A stretch of DNA of 64,000 nucleotides from Candidatus Omnitrophota bacterium (GCA_026387335.1 JAPLLX010000002.1:77326-141325); one strand, 5' to 3'; numbered from the stretch's first letter, positions 37,564 through 46,357 are shown. Numbers and translations: made by a program. The notes: generated from the letters alone by a model not told the origin.

Positions 37564-39357
37564 ATGCATAAGATAAAGTGGCACGGCTTATTTTTTGCAA
37601 TAATTCTAGCGGGTACTTTTTCTTTTGCCTTGGCGCAGGATGATACCTCGACAGACTTAGATAGAATAGTTGTTTCTAAGAGCAGAAACTTGTTTTCAGG
37701 CGGGTATTCTTTAAGTGCTGCCGACCTAGAAGCCCTTCCGGCAAGCTCAATTATTGAAGCAGTAGGTTCATTACCTTTAGATTTACAGAGCCGCTCACCG
37801 CACTCAGGGATCCAAGCAGATTTTTCTTTACGCGGGTCAAGTTTTCAGGATGTGCTTCTTCTTCTTAACGGCCGGCGGATTAACGATCCCCAGACAGCCC
37901 ATTTTAATTCCGATATTCCCTTTACCCGCGCGGATATCTCCAAGGCCCAGGTTTTGCCTTCAGCTTCTTCATCGCTTTTTGGCCCGGACGCGATAGGAGG
38001 GGCGGTTAATTTCATTATTAAAAGGCCGCAAGAGAAAAAATACGTTTTAGAATTATCCGGGGGCCAGCATAACACTTTTTCAGGGCTTTTTAGCGCCAGC
38101 GATAAGATTAAAGACTTGGGGTTAAGGCTATCCATAGAGAGAGCGCAGTCATCCGGGTTCCATGAGGACACAGATTATAAAAAATTTACCACAAGTATCG
38201 CTTCTTCTCTAGCCTTGCCGTTGGGCTCCTTTGATTTTAATATGGGGTATCAGCAAAAGGAATTCGGAGCGTTTGATTTTTATACCCCCGGAAAAAATAA
38301 TCCTTCCAAGGAGTGGACAAGGACGTATCTTTTAGATACCGGATTCAATTTAGATAAGGATGGTTTGGTGATTAAGCCGAATTTTATCTGGCGCAGGCAT
38401 TTTGATAAATTCCAGCTGGATAAAACAGGGGTGAAAAGTAATTTTGTCAGTAATCACCGTAACGACACATATACACCGAGTATTTATTTTCAAAAGGAAT
38501 TTTTAAGCCTGGGCAAACTCGGTTTTGGCCTGGAATATGGAGATGAACGTATTACCTCCACTACTTTAGGCAGGCACAATAGGGAGCACAAAAGCCTATT
38601 TATTGATGACGCGCTAGATTTAACTCCAGCGCTTTCTTCAGGCTTATCTTTTCGCCTGGATGATTTTGACAGTTTTAATACAGCTTATACCGGCTCCTTA
38701 ACCTTGCGCTACGAAATCCTTAGCCAAAACTTTTTGCATTTTGCGGTTTCCCGGAATATTCGCGTGCCTTCTTTTACCGAGCTTTATTATAGCGATGACG
38801 GTTATACTATAGGTAACTCTAATCTTTCAGCCGAGAAGTCCCTGAATTACGAAATCGGTTACGAAATCAAAAAAGAGAGATTTTCCTTTAGCCCGACACT
38901 ATTCTTCCGCAGGGAGGATGATTTTATTGACTGGGTAATGGCTGGTTCAAGATGGCAGGCTAAAAACATTTCCGGCGCGGATGTGCTTGGGATAGAAACT
39001 CGATTCGGATGGGAAATAAATAAAATTGCTAGCGTAAATACCAATTATACCTATATTAATAAATTCACGAATAATGAGTACCTTTTTAAATACGGGCCCA
39101 ACTATGCCCGGCACCTGTGGAATACCGAATTTGTCTTCCAGCTTCCTTTCGGCGCTCAAAGTATAGGTTTTACCTATAAAAAGAAACCCGGTCGAGACGG
39201 CTGGTTTCTGCTTAACGCCCGCGCAAACTTCAATTTAAATAAAAATACCTCTTTATTTATTACGGGGACAAACCTGCTTAATACCGGTTATCAGGAGATA
39301 GAGGGGATACCTCAGCCCGGAAGGTGGGTAGATTCCGGATTTAGGCTTGAATGGTAA
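37564..39357 (+). CDS. TonB-dependent outer-membrane receptor
   Basis: 597 aa with a signal peptide, plug-domain motifs (DRIVVS, LLLNGRRINDP, FGPDAIGGAVNFI) and a C-terminal beta-barrel ending in an aromatic residue (GFRLEW). Confidence 0.8.
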   Translation: MHKIKWHGLFFAIILAGTFSFALAQDDTSTDLDRIVVSKSRNLFSGGYSLSAADLEALPASSIIEAVGSLPLDLQSRSPHSGIQADFSLRGSSFQDVLLLLNGRRINDPQTAHFNSDIPFTRADISKAQVLPSASSSLFGPDAIGGAVNFIIKRPQEKKYVLELSGGQHNTFSGLFSASDKIKDLGLRLSIERAQSSGFHEDTDYKKFTTSIASSLALPLGSFDFNMGYQQKEFGAFDFYTPGKNNPSKEWTRTYLLDTGFNLDKDGLVIKPNFIWRRHFDKFQLDKTGVKSNFVSNHRNDTYTPSIYFQKEFLSLGKLGFGLEYGDERITSTTLGRHNREHKSLFIDDALDLTPALSSGLSFRLDDFDSFNTAYTGSLTLRYEILSQNFLHFAVSRNIRVPSFTELYYSDDGYTIGNSNLSAEKSLNYEIGYEIKKERFSFSPTLFFRREDDFIDWVMAGSRWQAKNISGADVLGIETRFGWEINKIASVNTNYTYINKFTNNEYLFKYGPNYARHLWNTEFVFQLPFGAQSIGFTYKKKPGRDGWFLLNARANFNLNKNTSLFITGTNLLNTGYQEIEGIPQPGRWVDSGFRLEW

Positions 39358-39372
39358 AAGATTATTGCTATA

Positions 39373-39672
39373 ATGTTATCTATGTTTATTCATGTTGTTT
39401 TATTCCAGGTTAAGCCTAAAGAAGTGGCCAAATACCGCAAGGATAGCCTGATGTGGGCCAGTTATACTAAGAAAGCTAAAGGATTTGTGGCGTATTTTAC
39501 TATGAAGCGTTACGGTCGCCTTAATCAATACGCTTCAGTGTATGAATGGGATAGAAAAGTTGATCACAACCGCTTTATGAAGAAATACCACGATTGGTTG
39601 GTAAGCAAATCCAAAGCCAAGGTAAAAGTGCTGGGTTATTATAACCTTAAAGGCATAGATAGGCTAAGGTAA
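39373..39672 (+). CDS. small ABM/Dabb-like ferredoxin-fold protein (candidate)
   Basis: 99 aa. Only the pattern of an antibiotic-biosynthesis-monooxygenase-like fold. Its position after a TonB receptor is reminiscent of IsdG-type proteins, but this is weak. Confidence 0.3.
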   Translation: MLSMFIHVVLFQVKPKEVAKYRKDSLMWASYTKKAKGFVAYFTMKRYGRLNQYASVYEWDRKVDHNRFMKKYHDWLVSKSKAKVKVLGYYNLKGIDRLR

Positions 39673-39688
39673 AAATACCTAAAAAAAC

Positions 39689-39716
39689 TTGAAATTCGCC
39701 TATTTTATGGTATACT
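39689..39716 (+). promoter_or_regulatory. promoter of the giant ORF (TTGAAA-N16-TATACT with TGn extended -10)
   Basis: TTGAAA at 39689-39694 and TGGTATACT at 39708-39716. Confidence 0.55.
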
Positions 39717-39865: not shown

Positions 39866-42800
39866 ATGAAAGTCAAATTAAGAAAAATCCTATCTTTAGC
39901 TTTAACCATTAGTTTACTTTTTCAGCAAATAGGTTTTGCCCAGATAGCTACCGAACTTAACCTGGTCAATCACTTCGCCAGGATGGCTAGCAGTCTCACA
40001 GTAGAGAAATTTCGGCCCCTGCACCTGCGTTATTTCTCTTACGACAACTTAAATGACAATTTCAAGGTATTGGTGGATAAAGGTGACTTCGAGAAGGGAC
40101 TGTCCCCGAAGGGGGCTGTCCCTGAAGAGAAACTTAAAGAAGAAACCAAAACCCTCCTTAGCTACTTCCTTGTAGGAGTTACTCTTCCAGATAGTATGTT
40201 CTGGGTTAACCTGCGCCCTGATTCCGAAGACCAGATAATAGACCAGTATCTGGAGAAGACAGATATAGGTAAGATAATGCTGGAAGCAGATCTCCAGCTA
40301 AAGAAAGACACCGCGCTAATGACTTCTCCGGCTACCCCTGAAGGTAGGGAATACTGGGATAGGCTCTATAAGAAGGCAGCCGAGCTTTATGGCTATGATA
40401 ATGTTAGCATACCTACCTTAACCCGGCCCTGGATAGTCCCCGGAGAAATAATTGTCCGGGAATCTCAAGACTCAGCCTATGTTTATAAAGCTAATCTTAA
40501 GGTAATGCTGGAGCAGGATTACTTAAAAGATTCTAGTAACTATAACTTTAAAGACAGCCGCTCCAAAGCCCTGAATGAATACTCATCCGAACTAATAAGG
40601 GAATTAATTATCCCTAAGCTCACTAAAGAAGTAAACTCCAGCAAAAGATACGCTCCTTTACGCCAGGTATATTACTCTTTAATCCTGGCCCGCTGGTTTA
40701 AACTGCGCTTTAGCGGCAAAACCGGCACCTATGCTTCGCTCATTAACACTAGGAATTTAACTAACTTAATATCTAAAGACTCCTGGTCCAAGACCGATTA
40801 TTTTAAACAATACCAAAAATCCTTCTCTGAAGGCGAATACAATATCCAAGAACCAGTGCGTACCCCTACAGGCCAGGTAATCAGGAGTTACTTTAGCGGC
40901 GGGATAGATGTAGCTAGTAGCGCTATTAATACTCAGAATGGCGTTAGTAATCTTAAAGCGGCGTTGCCCCTTTCTTTGTTTTCTCGAACCGGAGTCATAA
41001 TAGGAGGAAATGCCGCAAGGCCTTTTAGCGTAAATCTGCAGCCCGTTGTTGCCGCTTCAGTCGGCGCCGCCTCGCCGGTTAAAACCTCTAGCCCGATATT
41101 TACTCTTGATGATAGAAATGGGGTAGTCTTTTCTGTTTATCCCAGAACAGAAATAAGAGAGGATCAACTAAGAGAGGCGGCGGAGGTTTTGAAAAACCGG
41201 ATTTTTAACTATCCAAAAAATGGCAAGATTATTGATATTCAGCTAGTCCCTGGCTCTAAGCGGCAGATAGCTTATCCTACGCGCTGGAAAATAGTTATAG
41301 AGCATAAGCCTGATTTAGAAGAAACTCTGGTTACATTAGTAAATGATCAGGGCAAAGTTATTATTAATATAGGCTATTCTATCGATAGTAAAGCGCTCGA
41401 TTTACCAGAAAAACTTCTTAACGAACACCTGCAGATGGCATTGATTAGCGCCGCATCCAGAATAAGGTTTAATTCACTGGCCGCCGCCTCGCCGGTTAGT
41501 TCATTAGAAAATCAAGCATATCTTCTTGCTTTAACCTTGGGCATAAAAGATTCAGAAAGGAAGTATGTCGCGGTGGTATTTATGATGCCTTTGATAAAAG
41601 CCTTTATGGATAATAGTAATCCTCCTCCGACTTCAAGCCAGGCCAAAGAATTCTATCAGAGAATAATAAATAATACAGACAAGACAGTTTCAGTTGAAGT
41701 TTTAGCCCGGTCGTTTGCTTTCCTTTCAAATCCGAACGCTAGCTTGTCGGAAAAAGAAAAATTCAACAGCTCGCCGGTGACTTCAAATTTAGCTAAGGCA
41801 GTTGAGGAAGCGCAAAGCCAGTTGCCGGCAGATGTAAATGAACAGATTTTAAAGTTTATTGTTACCGGCGATGAAAATGGAAGAATACTTTATCCTATTT
41901 GGCCGCAAGATTCTGTTATGGTCGGACATGTCAGAGATGACCGGGCTGGATATTTTGCCAGAGGCCTGCAGAATAGAGGCTTTAAAAATTTATTAGGATA
42001 TATTAAATTTACCAATGATTTCCAAGGTAAAGCTGTTTTGTCCGAAGAAACTATCGCTAGTGTTCCAAATACTTTTTTTGAGAGAATATCCAACAAGGGG
42101 TATCAAGTGTTGGTGATTTCTGAAGATGAGAAGAAAAGCCATACGGGTAAAAACGCTGCCGGTAGGAAAAAGGACGGGCTTTTCCCCGGGCAAAAACAGA
42201 TTGTAATACCTATGCAGAAATCTGAAATGGCCTATGTAGATACTCCCCAGATGAAAATGAAAGAATGCGCTGACGAGGTATTAAATGGACTGGATGACGA
42301 TGCTACAGATTTTATTTTAGTTAATCTGCTAAGTTCAGATATGATGAAACACACCGGTAACTTCCAAGCGGCAAAAAAAAGTAATGAAATAACCGACCAG
42401 CAGATCGGAAGAATAAAAGAAAAGGTTGATAGAATAAAAAGCCATATTCTGGGTGATATGATGAAAGAAGTCAATAAATACTTATCTAGAGAAGAGGCCA
42501 GTCAGCTTTATGTTTTACTATTGAATAATTATGCTGAATTTTTAGCAAGGCTGAAGAATAAAAACCAGGAGCTCTATAAACGGATAAAAGATTTAGAAGC
42601 CAAAATTCCCATCTTTGTTATTACTGCTGACCATGGCGCTTCTGAGGCAGGTCTCACTGATAATCCGAAGGAATCCGACACTTTCCATACAGCCAATCCA
42701 GTGCCGTATATTATTTATGATCCCCTAAGAACTCAAAAATTAGCTTTAAAGTCCGGACAGACCATCAGGAATAACGGGGCTACATTATTACACCTATTAG

Positions 42801-45800
42801 GCGAAGAGATCCCCCAAGGGTCTGATCCCAGCTTGCTGCCTGATGATTATCAAGGAAGTAAGCGTAGGATCACGATGGCTGTTTTGGATGGCTGGGGTAT
42901 AAACCCTGATCAGAATTATCCCTGGGATGCTATCCGGCTGGCCAATACACCTAATTATGACTGGATGGTTGAGAATGCGTCTTTCACTCAGGTCCAAGCG
43001 CACGGTGAAGTGATCGGATTAAGAGGCCCATTATCTTTGGAAGAAGGTAGACACCATTTAAGAGGCCTGCAAGCAGGCCAGACTGACGTTGGCCACCTGC
43101 ATTTGTTCTCACTGAGAGAGATTAAACAACCTTTATGGTATGTAGACAGGCTTATCAAAGGCAGTATACGCGATGGCGTTTTTGATGAAAGCAAACCCGA
43201 AGTCCAGGTATTGGTAAAAGAATTACAAAGGGTTAAGGATAATAATTTGAGATTTCATTATATAACCATCGCTTCTGAGGGTGGAGTGCATTCTTCGCTC
43301 TATCATATGTATGCCTTGATGAGATTAGCTAAGAAAATCGGCTTAAGGCAGGATCAATTTATTATCCATTTTGCCGCTGACGGTAGGGATGTGCCTACGC
43401 GCACCGCGCATCTATACATTCAGGATGTTGAAAAACGCATTGAAGAAATTGGAATAGGCGTAATTGCAACGGTATTTGGCAGGGATATGTTCGTACGTAA
43501 GGATGGCGCAGAAAATATCACTAATCGCATCATTGATGTAATGGAGGGTATTAATCTGGATGCGCAGGATGTCACGCAGGTAAAATCTGTCGCCAGCTCG
43601 GCGGTCACAGCAGTAGAATCTTTGAGAAATGATATTCTAACTAGGCTAAAAGAACGGATAAAAGATGATTCTGTTGTTAACCTGGTAAGGTCAAACTACT
43701 TATTTTATACGGCGAATACTCCTTCTAAATTAGCAAAGGCACTTGTTCAGATAGAAGAGAATCTGGATGGATTGATTATGTCTGCCACCGAAGAAAGATC
43801 GAGAGACCTGCAGACGCTCCAAGAATCAATAGAATCAGAACTGGCTAAACTTGTCTCCGTCGACTTGCCGGTGGAGACTATCAGTGAATTTGCAAAGATA
43901 GTTGAAAAACTGGCTGGTTATGGAGATGTAAGTTTTGATATATCGGGAACGGGAACTTTGAGAATACGCTATGCTGGTAATTTGTCTATGGTAGATAAGG
44001 TAGAAGCCGACAAGCTTCTGGTTAAGGCTAGAAAATTAATAGTAGAAGTTTCTTCTATAATAGGAAAAAAGATAAGCCAGTCATATGTGATGAAATTCCC
44101 GCAGGGGACTTTAGCTGCTAAGATAAGGGAAGATTTACTGCTTGAAAAAGCAAGGATATCAGAAAGTTTCGCCAGCTCGGAGGTTACTTATATAGACATA
44201 AATGAAGTAAGGCCGCCGGATAAGAGTTTTACTTTTCAACCCACAAATGGAGTGAGAATTTTTATTAATAATCGTGTCAATTGGTATACTCTGCAATTGG
44301 CTAGGTATGAGCCGGGAAAGAAGAATTATTTGATATTTAAGATTGGCAATCAACCTGTTCATTACGCTTACCTGAGCAGTAATCTTACAATTGGCCAACA
44401 GGATGTTGTTAGGACTATAATGAGAAAAATAGAGAATGGAACTCAGCTGTGGACAGAAATAGACTTAATCCAAGCGTTGGAAAAAGCATTATCTATGTCA
44501 CAATATAAGCCTAAAACTCAAGAATTACCGTCACCAATTATAATAGAACCTATTGTAGATAATAAAATTAAAGTGGAGTCGGGTGATTCAGAGCGCGCCA
44601 GCTCGCCGGTGCAGAAGGAAGAAAGATCGAACTATCTATTCTCTGGGTTACAGGAGGCAACCTTAGATGCAATTGGGGATATCCAGGGATTGGCAAGTTG
44701 GGCGCCTTTAATAGAAGAAGGCCCCAGCGGCGTAGAGCTAGGTATGGATATTATAATGAAGGAATACGGTTTAGATTCAGATAAGCCTATTCTTACGCAA
44801 CGATTAGCCGAACCAGGTAATTTTAAAGAGCTTTTGGAAAAAATCGATAAATTATATGAGTTTTTGGAAAAAAAATTAGAGAGCTTTTCTAAATTACTCG
44901 CTGATGTTAAAGAACAACAAAAGAAAATAATGACCCAGCATATAAGTAGTGTTAGCGACCAGGGTAAGGGTATAGAAAAAAGTTCCGTTTATTGGGGGAG
45001 TGAGTTTGTTTTAGAAGTTGCAATTAATAACATTGAAATAGCAATGCTTAAGTTAAGGCAAGCTGTTGAGAAAGTCAAAGGAGATATAGCTATTGTACCC
45101 AACTCATATATCGGGACTAAATTAAAGGAAGGCGCCAGCTCGGCGGTAACCAGAGAGAAAAAAGAGTCAGTTAACCTTTTAGGCGGAAGCACGCAAAAAA
45201 GAGTGCTTAGGGTTTATGAAGAGAAGGGCAGAGATTTAATAGCTACAGCCCTAGCTACAGGCCTTACTTTGGATATTGTATCTGAGTATGTTAAGGACGC
45301 CAAGCGTAATCCGGCCAGCTCGGCGGTGACGGAAAAAATTAAGGAAACGTTTCGCCAAGGAGGACTTTCCTTGAGTGAGTATACTATGGATTATATCGCG
45401 AAAAGGTTAAGCTCCATATTAAAGGATGGCGATGATATTGATAGAGATACTGCTGCTAAAATATTAATTAGCGTATATGATAATAATAAGCTTGCGGGTG
45501 GAACTCGAGCCCTCGGTCAAGTGTTTGCAACGCTTAATGATGCCAGGGAATTGCGGGAAATGGTAAAATACATCCGCGATCAGAAGGATAAATCTGTTGC
45601 CAGCTCGGCGGTGCATCATAAAATAATCAACCTCTACGATTTTGATTCTATCAAGGCGAAGAAAATAGATCCAAGTATTTTAAAAAATAGATTCATAGAG
45701 AAAATAGAAGAATTAATAGCAGATGTAAGGGAAGGTAAGAGAAGAGAATTTGCCGGTGAGTTGATACGATTAGCGAAAGCTGATGAGAACCTTTATACGA

Positions 45801-46357
45801 TTTGGTTTACCGATACAACATGGGTAGATATTAGACCTCAAGGGACAGAGATAGATATTAATTTTAGGTGTCGAGCTGGAATAGAGCAAAGCGTTGTGTG
45901 GGATGTTAGGCGTTTGATTAAGCTTTCCCAGTCAGAATTGTTAGTAGGAACCGTCGGCTCGGCGGTGCAGACTCCTGAGGAGACCGCAAGTTCAGCGTTG
46001 ACTCCCGGCGGTATTGATTTCCGCGCTCTACCGATGAGCATCCAGCCGATGGGAAGTTTTGCGGGCCTGAATTTTAAGCTGCCGCAGTTGACTCAAGCGC
46101 AGCTTAAGCAAATCAATATTGAATCAGAGATGCAACAGGTTAAGAATCTGGTAGAATCAGGGATTGTTCCTTCCGGAGACAGGATTAAAGAGCTTATCGC
46201 CGCTTGCAGCCAGAAGGGGAAGATTAGTTATTATGTAGATAATCTATTACTCTGCCTGGTAGATATATGTAAACTTGAAGAGCAGAATGCCTTTGAAACT
46301 TCCCCGGAGCTAAGAGAGGCGCTGGCGATTGTTGATTCGCTTGGCGGGCAGGTATAA
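39866..46357 (+). CDS. giant secreted mosaic protein (2163 aa) with embedded circularly permuted iPGM-like phosphatase domain; function unknown
   Basis: Uninterrupted 6.5-kb ORF with RBS AAAAGGAG and signal peptide MKVKLRKILSLALTISLLFQQIGFAQ. Has recurring ASS(A/P)V junctions, iPGM motifs (see findings), and a C-terminal PGGIDFRALP region. Confidence 0.9.
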   Translation: MKVKLRKILSLALTISLLFQQIGFAQIATELNLVNHFARMASSLTVEKFRPLHLRYFSYDNLNDNFKVLVDKGDFEKGLSPKGAVPEEKLKEETKTLLSYFLVGVTLPDSMFWVNLRPDSEDQIIDQYLEKTDIGKIMLEADLQLKKDTALMTSPATPEGREYWDRLYKKAAELYGYDNVSIPTLTRPWIVPGEIIVRESQDSAYVYKANLKVMLEQDYLKDSSNYNFKDSRSKALNEYSSELIRELIIPKLTKEVNSSKRYAPLRQVYYSLILARWFKLRFSGKTGTYASLINTRNLTNLISKDSWSKTDYFKQYQKSFSEGEYNIQEPVRTPTGQVIRSYFSGGIDVASSAINTQNGVSNLKAALPLSLFSRTGVIIGGNAARPFSVNLQPVVAASVGAASPVKTSSPIFTLDDRNGVVFSVYPRTEIREDQLREAAEVLKNRIFNYPKNGKIIDIQLVPGSKRQIAYPTRWKIVIEHKPDLEETLVTLVNDQGKVIINIGYSIDSKALDLPEKLLNEHLQMALISAASRIRFNSLAAASPVSSLENQAYLLALTLGIKDSERKYVAVVFMMPLIKAFMDNSNPPPTSSQAKEFYQRIINNTDKTVSVEVLARSFAFLSNPNASLSEKEKFNSSPVTSNLAKAVEEAQSQLPADVNEQILKFIVTGDENGRILYPIWPQDSVMVGHVRDDRAGYFARGLQNRGFKNLLGYIKFTNDFQGKAVLSEETIASVPNTFFERISNKGYQVLVISEDEKKSHTGKNAAGRKKDGLFPGQKQIVIPMQKSEMAYVDTPQMKMKECADEVLNGLDDDATDFILVNLLSSDMMKHTGNFQAAKKSNEITDQQIGRIKEKVDRIKSHILGDMMKEVNKYLSREEASQLYVLLLNNYAEFLARLKNKNQELYKRIKDLEAKIPIFVITADHGASEAGLTDNPKESDTFHTANPVPYIIYDPLRTQKLALKSGQTIRNNGATLLHLLGEEIPQGSDPSLLPDDYQGSKRRITMAVLDGWGINPDQNYPWDAIRLANTPNYDWMVENASFTQVQAHGEVIGLRGPLSLEEGRHHLRGLQAGQTDVGHLHLFSLREIKQPLWYVDRLIKGSIRDGVFDESKPEVQVLVKELQRVKDNNLRFHYITIASEGGVHSSLYHMYALMRLAKKIGLRQDQFIIHFAADGRDVPTRTAHLYIQDVEKRIEEIGIGVIATVFGRDMFVRKDGAENITNRIIDVMEGINLDAQDVTQVKSVASSAVTAVESLRNDILTRLKERIKDDSVVNLVRSNYLFYTANTPSKLAKALVQIEENLDGLIMSATEERSRDLQTLQESIESELAKLVSVDLPVETISEFAKIVEKLAGYGDVSFDISGTGTLRIRYAGNLSMVDKVEADKLLVKARKLIVEVSSIIGKKISQSYVMKFPQGTLAAKIREDLLLEKARISESFASSEVTYIDINEVRPPDKSFTFQPTNGVRIFINNRVNWYTLQLARYEPGKKNYLIFKIGNQPVHYAYLSSNLTIGQQDVVRTIMRKIENGTQLWTEIDLIQALEKALSMSQYKPKTQELPSPIIIEPIVDNKIKVESGDSERASSPVQKEERSNYLFSGLQEATLDAIGDIQGLASWAPLIEEGPSGVELGMDIIMKEYGLDSDKPILTQRLAEPGNFKELLEKIDKLYEFLEKKLESFSKLLADVKEQQKKIMTQHISSVSDQGKGIEKSSVYWGSEFVLEVAINNIEIAMLKLRQAVEKVKGDIAIVPNSYIGTKLKEGASSAVTREKKESVNLLGGSTQKRVLRVYEEKGRDLIATALATGLTLDIVSEYVKDAKRNPASSAVTEKIKETFRQGGLSLSEYTMDYIAKRLSSILKDGDDIDRDTAAKILISVYDNNKLAGGTRALGQVFATLNDARELREMVKYIRDQKDKSVASSAVHHKIINLYDFDSIKAKKIDPSILKNRFIEKIEELIADVREGKRREFAGELIRLAKADENLYTIWFTDTTWVDIRPQGTEIDINFRCRAGIEQSVVWDVRRLIKLSQSELLVGTVGSAVQTPEETASSALTPGGIDFRALPMSIQPMGSFAGLNFKLPQLTQAQLKQINIESEMQQVKNLVESGIVPSGDRIKELIAACSQKGKISYYVDNLLLCLVDICKLEEQNAFETSPELREALAIVDSLGGQV
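43592..45613 (+). repeat. dispersed in-frame 14-mer GCCAGCTCGGCGGT (4 exact copies, 2 one-mismatch copies)
   Basis: Exact copies start at 43592, 45134, 45314 and 45599. One-mismatch copies start at 44171 (GCCAGCTCGGAGGT) and 44597 (GCCAGCTCGCCGGT). Degenerate relatives start at 41066, 41480, 41768, 45956 and 45986. Confidence 0.9.

Follow-up and report, generated by a model that had tools for sequence, protein, structure and literature searches.

The 64,000-nucleotide stretch of Candidatus Omnitrophota bacterium DNA analysed here (GCA_026387335.1, JAPLLX010000002.1:77326-141325; hereafter the window) carries on its + strand, at 39866..46357, an open reading frame (ORF) of 2163 amino acids (aa), the product of which is 100% identical to the NCBI entry MAG (metagenome-assembled genome) hypothetical protein NTW18_02340 of Candidatus Omnitrophica bacterium. 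The protein opens with a Sec-signal-like leader and a conserved N-terminal module (N-module), closes with a conserved C-terminal module (C-module), and houses between them a domain of the cofactor-independent phosphoglycerate mutase type (iPGM, GpmI) in which the two halves of the chain stand in swapped order. This iPGM module reaches from aa ~634 (window ~41765) to aa ~1247 (~43606), slightly beyond the range given in a preliminary description made from the sequence alone, and is flanked on either side by a short linker motif: NSSPV at its N-terminal edge (aa 634-638, 41765..41779, +), where the stand-alone homologues start in the alignment, and ASSAV at its C-terminal edge (aa 1243-1247, 43592..43606, +).

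The first half (41780..42856, +) corresponds to canonical residues ~215-505, which make up the last stretch of the transferase domain and the C-terminal portion of the phosphatase domain, and contains R690/R693, K756, D825/H829, D922/H923 and H941. The second half (42857..43591, +) corresponds to canonical residues 2-~210 and contains D1008, T1073, H1077, H1142, R1174/D1175, R1206 and R1211/K1212. A join of ~14 residues (aa 984-997, 42815..42856, +, QGSDPSLLPDDYQG) connects the former C-terminus with the former N-terminus; over it the alignment stops at iPGM residue 500 and restarts at residue 2.

A phosphoglycerate mutase in swapped order

All the motifs from which the preliminary description had derived a permuted iPGM were found in the translation of the ORF in the order it gave, with ITMAVLDGWG beginning at 42869. 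Profile searches bear out the reversal, as both halves gave significant matches with the C-half ahead of the N-half: Pfam Metalloenzyme (PF01676) scored 102.2 bits (cut-off 24.3, E 4.3e-29) in three stretches, the best being aa 731-857 over profile positions 66-190, and iPGM_N (PF06415) scored 92.7 bits (cut-off 27, E 2.9e-26) for aa 1101-1231 over positions 5-129. Among PDB sequences, phmmer matched the Bacillus stearothermophilus enzyme (1ejj, E 7.8e-44) in three stretches, likewise in swapped order (aa 661-852 to iPGM residues 233-430, aa 912-983 to 434-500 and aa 998-1213 to 2-192), such that the C-terminal 55% of the canonical chain is placed ahead of its N-terminal 40%. The remaining ~40 canonical residues align to the flanks (the helix that follows Arg191 after aa 1213, and the helix preceding 'DEF..P' before aa 661); judging from these alignments, the permuted iPGM is complete and no canonical part is absent. 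The break point lies around B. stearothermophilus residue ~212, in a loop on the surface of the transferase domain.

With canonical iPGM (PF01676 + PF06415, TIGR01307; structures 1EJJ and 1O98) the module shares the fold, the ligands of the binuclear metal centre and the phosphoglycerate-binding Arg/Lys/His set, at ~25-35% identity over both halves; phosphopentomutase (DeoB) and the NPP-type phosphodiesterases, of the alkaline phosphatase superfamily, are also among the closest known systems. It differs from the canonical enzyme by the permutation at the transferase-domain loop, by a Thr for the nucleophilic Ser, by its embedding in a 2163-aa protein and by two inserts. One of these, a ~55-aa helical hairpin (aa ~845-905, window ~42398-42580) preceding the TADHG motif, is confined to the Thr-type clade introduced below, was modelled with high confidence and might serve docking or oligomerisation; the other (~15 aa) lies ahead of the nucleophile position.

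AlphaFold2 (AF2), run on aa 628-1262 with an alignment of 12 homologues, returned a single compact model (mean predicted local distance difference test, pLDDT, 83.5; predicted template-modelling score, pTM, 0.83) with the two-domain fold of iPGM. In a Foldseek search of the PDB the top 22 matches were all iPGM (best E 4.4e-08, 290-349 aligned columns), in a sequential comparison, which for a permuted chain extends over no more than about half of the length. That the two halves rebuild one fold is supported by the high pTM and by the completeness of the ligand set. Pfam, phmmer, AF2 and Foldseek thus agree on a real and complete circularly permuted iPGM, as first proposed.

The six ligands of the binuclear metal centre are all kept (Asp12 as D1008, Asp403/His407 as D825/H829, Asp444/His445 as D922/H923 and His462 as H941) and are invariant in the alignment of permuted homologues. 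The retention of the metal ligands and a Thr nucleophile had both been noted before, and the ACT codon of Thr1073, the residue aligned with the phosphoserine nucleophile Ser62, lies exactly at 43082-43084 (+). His66 and His123 are represented by H1077 and H1142, Arg153/Asp154 by R1174/D1175, Arg185 by R1206, Arg261/Arg264 by R690/R693 and Lys336 by K756; Arg191, aligned to K1212 with R1211 adjoining, is the sole substrate ligand not kept as such. Across the 12 permuted homologues (27-65% identity to the module) the active-site residues are mostly invariant or nearly so, the exceptions being the Ser/Thr nucleophile, Asp154 (kept in the Thr-type clade only) and Arg191. A Thr nucleophile (GNTETGH) was also present, among the hits obtained, in 26 homologues of canonical order and ~540-557 aa (P0145, P0151, P0155 and 23 others); on this comparison the Ser-to-Thr change is recurrent and independent of the permutation, which suggests that the substitution is probably tolerated.

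Permuted homologues, free and embedded

A search with the module alone recovered two groups of permuted proteins, a Thr-type and a Ser-type clade, with the same break point and the same order. Members of the Thr-type clade (45-75% identity) are either embedded in other large proteins (P0002-P0004, P0008, P0241, P0242), or carry a short hydrophobic leader of their own (P0121, P0122, P0124), or are leaderless stand-alone enzymes of 606-635 aa (P0123, P0125-P0128), free of the carrier modules, whose termini coincide with the module edges in our ORF and which share its Thr nucleophile and inserts. The Ser-type proteins (490-570 aa; P0147, P0150, P0247, P0256 and others) also stand alone without leader or carrier modules, but keep GNSEVGH and lack the inserts. 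The embedding, which had been presented as an unusual arrangement in itself, loses much of its singularity in view of the leaderless ~610-aa forms and of a second permuted clade in other phyla.

In a survey based on one genome per GTDB species, the C-half preceded the N-half in 38 of the 76 classifiable loci; because the same order recurs in 38 independent loci of other genomes, we regard it as no artefact of assembly. By label, the nine Thr-type loci belong to Omnitrophota (6), Elusimicrobiota (1) and Planctomycetia/Pirellulaceae (2); as far as sequences and labels indicate, the clade is mainly present in MAGs labelled Omnitrophota, both free and embedded. Seven of the nine are situated in large ORFs (two stand alone), of which four open with hydrophobic leaders that fall into at least three unrelated types, and three are truncated by the 5' end of the contig. 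The Ser-type loci derive mostly from MAGs labelled Anaerolineae/Chloroflexota, with some from Aminicenantes and others; they include L013-L017, L019-L021, L023 and L027-L029, and wherever a source names them the name is that of an ordinary iPGM.

In a neighbour-joining tree the embedded copies formed one subclade, with the mostly stand-alone copies as its sister and the stand-alone Ser-type proteins as outgroup. Bit scores computed half by half did not decide between one permutation event and separate events for the Thr-type and Ser-type clades, and the genes surrounding the stand-alone homologues were unrelated and gave no clue to function. No paper describing a permuted iPGM was found in the searched literature.

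The carrier family and its genomic setting

The ends of the ORF define a protein family of its own. At least ~950 proteins have them (a lower bound, as the search scored 8,000 candidates only), and every one that is named to phylum level belongs to Omnitrophota. Relatives share aa 1-~400 at 58-79% identity, as well as aa ~2040-2163, while the middle differs. The leader (39866..39943, +, MKVKLRKILSLALTISLLFQQIGFAQ) is highly conserved family-wide: a near-identical version (R/K-rich, then ILSLVLSFGLLFQQxGFAQ) stands at the start of 111 of 119 relatives. Its pattern fits a Sec signal peptide (basic n-region, hydrophobic core of ~12 aa, GFA|Q), AF2 placed its helix (aa 2-30) detached from the N-module, and no other hydrophobic segment was found in the ORF. 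The iPGM module thus sits inside a large protein with a Sec-signal-like N-terminus, in keeping with the secreted giant protein first proposed. This leader suggests export; an extracellular location of the carrier is a prediction from sequence that is at odds with the ATP- and NAD-dependent enzymes carried by the family.

The N-module (aa ~27-400, 39944..41065, +) has an ordered core (aa ~50-320) for which profile search of the PDB, Pfam and NCBIfam yielded no detectable relative, and ends in the motif SGGIDVASSAI, the SGGIDV of which echoes the PGGIDF with which the C-module opens. The latter (aa ~2041-2163, 45986..46354, +, beginning with ASSALTPGGIDFRALP) is common to ~115 relatives, without a match in Pfam or NCBIfam, and is terminal in 92 of 115; both modules occupy the termini in 86 relatives. 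Our ORF has the full layout, with the conserved leader and N-module at its start and the PGGIDF C-module at its end.

What lies between the two modules is, to a large extent, central carbohydrate metabolism. Counted by Pfam matches, enzymes of glycolysis or the pentose-phosphate pathway are carried by 56 of the 120 listed relatives, and comprise PGK, enolase, GAPDH, TPI, PGM/PMM, cupin-type GPI, FBP aldolase/phosphatase, transaldolase, transketolase, PEP synthase/PPDK, ApgM and iPGM; other cargo includes guanylate or adenylate kinase, receiver domains, radical SAM, TPR and HEAT. Several steps may be united in one chain, as in P0038 (3108 aa: N-module, GAPDH, TPI, PGK, permuted iPGM, C-module) and P0073 (3600 aa: GAPDH, PGK, an aldolase-like domain, TPI, enolase). 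The domains are punctuated by a short motif, [AS]SS[PA][VLI], that was found between domains wherever it was mapped and is ~60-fold enriched in the 120 family proteins (224 observed against 3.8 expected from shuffling). Short motifs of this kind occur in our ORF at aa 350, 634, 1243, 1436, 1578, 1757, 1817, 1912 and 2041, and may be linkers or processing sites; no relevant literature was found for the motifs of the linkers and of the C-module (ASSPV, ASSAV, GGIDF and others).

Downstream of the iPGM module, helix-rich segments (43607..45985, +) with further ASS[APE]V motifs between them (aa 1436, 1578, 1757, 1817, 1912) have no match in Pfam or NCBIfam. Together with window 41066-41764 they make up ~1000 residues outside the iPGM and end modules that these databases do not match, and that are common to few relatives only (e.g., P0005, over aa 1757-1827 and 1895-2035).

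Just upstream of the carrier ORF lie a gene for a TonB-dependent receptor (37564-39357) and then a 99-aa ORF (39373-39672) with no family match, followed by a promoter-like site at 39689-39716. The neighbours in the window (the TonB-dependent receptor, MnmA, NadA, a pseudouridine synthase, BacA, BirA and a class-V aminotransferase) are unrelated, and the 64-kb window contains no second copy of the N- or C-module, no tRNA gene and no Rfam family above threshold. Its long ORFs are nearly all on the + strand, and the cumulative GC skew climbs steadily.

Glycolytic domains in giant proteins of this phylum are known already: TPI, GPI, FBPase, PGM/PMM, FBA and PPDK domains were reported in the 'Archaeovorins' of Omnitrophota and predicted to be extracellular, with the authors' caution that this localisation might be wrong (West-Roberts et al. 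2023, bioRxiv 10.1101/2023.11.21.568195), and a 2026 preprint (10.64898/2026.06.07.730766) describes 'multi-enzyme metabolic clusters' in proteins of at least 10 kaa (thousand aa), read as membrane-associated or exported. The present protein resembles these in phylum, in its signal-peptide-like start and in the stringing together of glycolytic or sugar-phosphate domains, but is far smaller (2163 aa, against at least 10,000-30,000 aa for the Omnitrophota giant multi-enzyme proteins). It also falls outside the Archaeovorins proper (at least 30,000 aa, with HEAT repeats, glycosyltransferases and transmembrane helices), since it has no HEAT or glycosyltransferase Pfam matches and no internal transmembrane segments. 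The carrier family is set by its specific N- and C-modules, of which the searched text of the two preprints makes no mention; the word 'mutase' is absent from the main text of both. What is undescribed in the searched literature is the permuted iPGM.

Probable phosphoglycerate chemistry on a carrier

We consider it likely that aa ~634-1247 constitute a catalytically competent, circularly permuted, metal-dependent iPGM, which would interconvert 3-phosphoglycerate (3PG) and 2-phosphoglycerate (2PG) within a tethered or co-localised glycolytic/gluconeogenic set. The chain would begin in the surface loop of the transferase domain, pass along the C-terminal portion of the phosphatase domain, cross the short join into the original N-terminus and finish in the transferase domain, the two halves folding into the usual two-domain enzyme. 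Two divalent metals, bound by D1008, T1073, D825, H829, D922, H923 and H941, would activate Thr1073, which would accept the phosphate from 3PG; the glycerate would be held during its reorientation by R690, R693, K756, H1142, R1174, R1206 and R1211/K1212, and the phosphate handed back to the other hydroxyl. In our protein the permuted iPGM is the recognisable cargo of the carrier, and its assignment to 3PG/2PG interconversion in such a set is suggested by the sister carriers, which hold the neighbouring glycolytic steps.

Several observations weigh against this proposal. The nucleophile is not the Ser of iPGM, and the loop that follows Lys336 departs from the canonical EKYAHVTFFFNGG and reads EKKSHTGKNAAGR; this altered loop and the 55-aa insert could mean that specificity is shifted. 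The match to the equivalog TIGR01307, again in three stretches and in swapped order, reaches 216.7 bits against a cut-off of 330.65, and the Sec-like leader predicts a location without an obvious glycolytic role. Most of the Omnitrophota genomes listed in the two sampled parts of Table S5 (Seymour et al., PMC10066038) possess apgM (K15635) and/or gpmA (K01834), and gpmI (K15633) is called in some genomes only; since other phosphoglycerate mutases (PGMs) are so frequent there, the module is probably not the only PGM of the cell. A role as the sole PGM of the organism was set aside on the same grounds, apgM and gpmA being common in the phylum.

In NPP-type enzymes the nucleophile is Thr. On this likeness, and on the changed loop and the additional helical insert, one may build a different account, in which the module is a neo-functionalised, exported phosphotransferase, that is, a secreted or surface-displayed phosphatase, phosphodiesterase or mutase acting on extracellular or host/prey phospho-compounds. 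Such an account would also accommodate the detached Sec-like leader, the prevalence of large ORFs among the Thr-type genes (7 of 9, with hydrophobic leaders on four), the leaders that P0121, P0122 and P0124 possess independently, and the extracellular predictions made for such domains in both preprints (bioRxiv 10.1101/2023.11.21.568195; bioRxiv 10.64898/2026.06.07.730766), of which the former qualifies its own localisation call. We nevertheless find it unlikely. Secreted alkaline phosphatases and NPP-type enzymes consist of the phosphatase core alone, whereas the module keeps an entire phosphoglycerate-binding transferase domain with its Arg/Lys/His ligands; the same clade has leaderless stand-alone members; and PGK, GAPDH, PPDK and guanylate kinase, ATP- or NAD-dependent cargo of sister proteins, have no obvious use outside the cytoplasm. 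The preliminary description had imagined surface phosphoesters of a host or partner as substrate, to which we found no pointer. With the phosphoglycerate-binding residues kept, and with PGK, enolase, GAPDH and TPI held by sister carriers that bear the same N- and C-modules, ordinary glycolytic chemistry is indicated instead.

The sub-equivalog score, the position among long segments without recognisable function and the commonness of other PGM types in the phylum would all suit an iPGM-derived domain retained as a catalytically inert scaffold or ligand-binding unit; we hold this for highly improbable, as the catalytic and metal-binding residues are all kept in homologues down to 27% identity, which would be unexpected for a pseudoenzyme. 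The usual route to circular permutation is tandem duplication followed by trimming at both ends, and one could therefore suspect a decaying remnant of such a duplication, or a misassembly, rather than one functional unit. This suspicion deserves hardly any credence and may be considered effectively refuted: every motif is present once, 38 loci agree in order and break point although they come from independent assemblies and span several phyla, proteins of 606-624 aa made up of nothing else show the order too, and AF2 gives one compact unit.

A bolder reading, which we consider unlikely, is that a whole series of glycolytic enzymes, strung together, is exported or tethered in Omnitrophota, with the Thr-type permuted iPGM as the variant suited to that setting. 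Carrier proteins would be taken across the membrane, or brought onto it, by their leader and N-module; the ASSxV-delimited modules, this iPGM among them, would then be active in the periplasm, at the cell surface or inside a host cell, and might first be released by proteolysis. If true, lower glycolysis in these ultra-small bacteria, which depend on a host, would take place in a compartment that is scaffolded or lies outside the cytoplasm.

Natural circular permutation of iPGM is widespread, though not met in the searched literature. As a consequence of the permutation, such genes score below equivalog and KEGG Orthology (KO) thresholds and carry a 'hypothetical' label, and the PGM step can look missing or mis-typed in pathway reconstructions. 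The permuted enzymes also offer a natural test of how far the two-domain mechanism of phosphate transfer tolerates changes in chain connectivity and of the nucleophile from Ser to Thr. The carrier family (leader and N-module, glycolytic cargo, PGGIDF C-module) provides, at 1-4 kaa against 30-150 kaa, a tractable entry into the question of why Omnitrophota fuse enzymes of central metabolism into leader-bearing proteins, and of whether these work at the cytoplasmic face, in the periplasm, on the cell surface or in the host.

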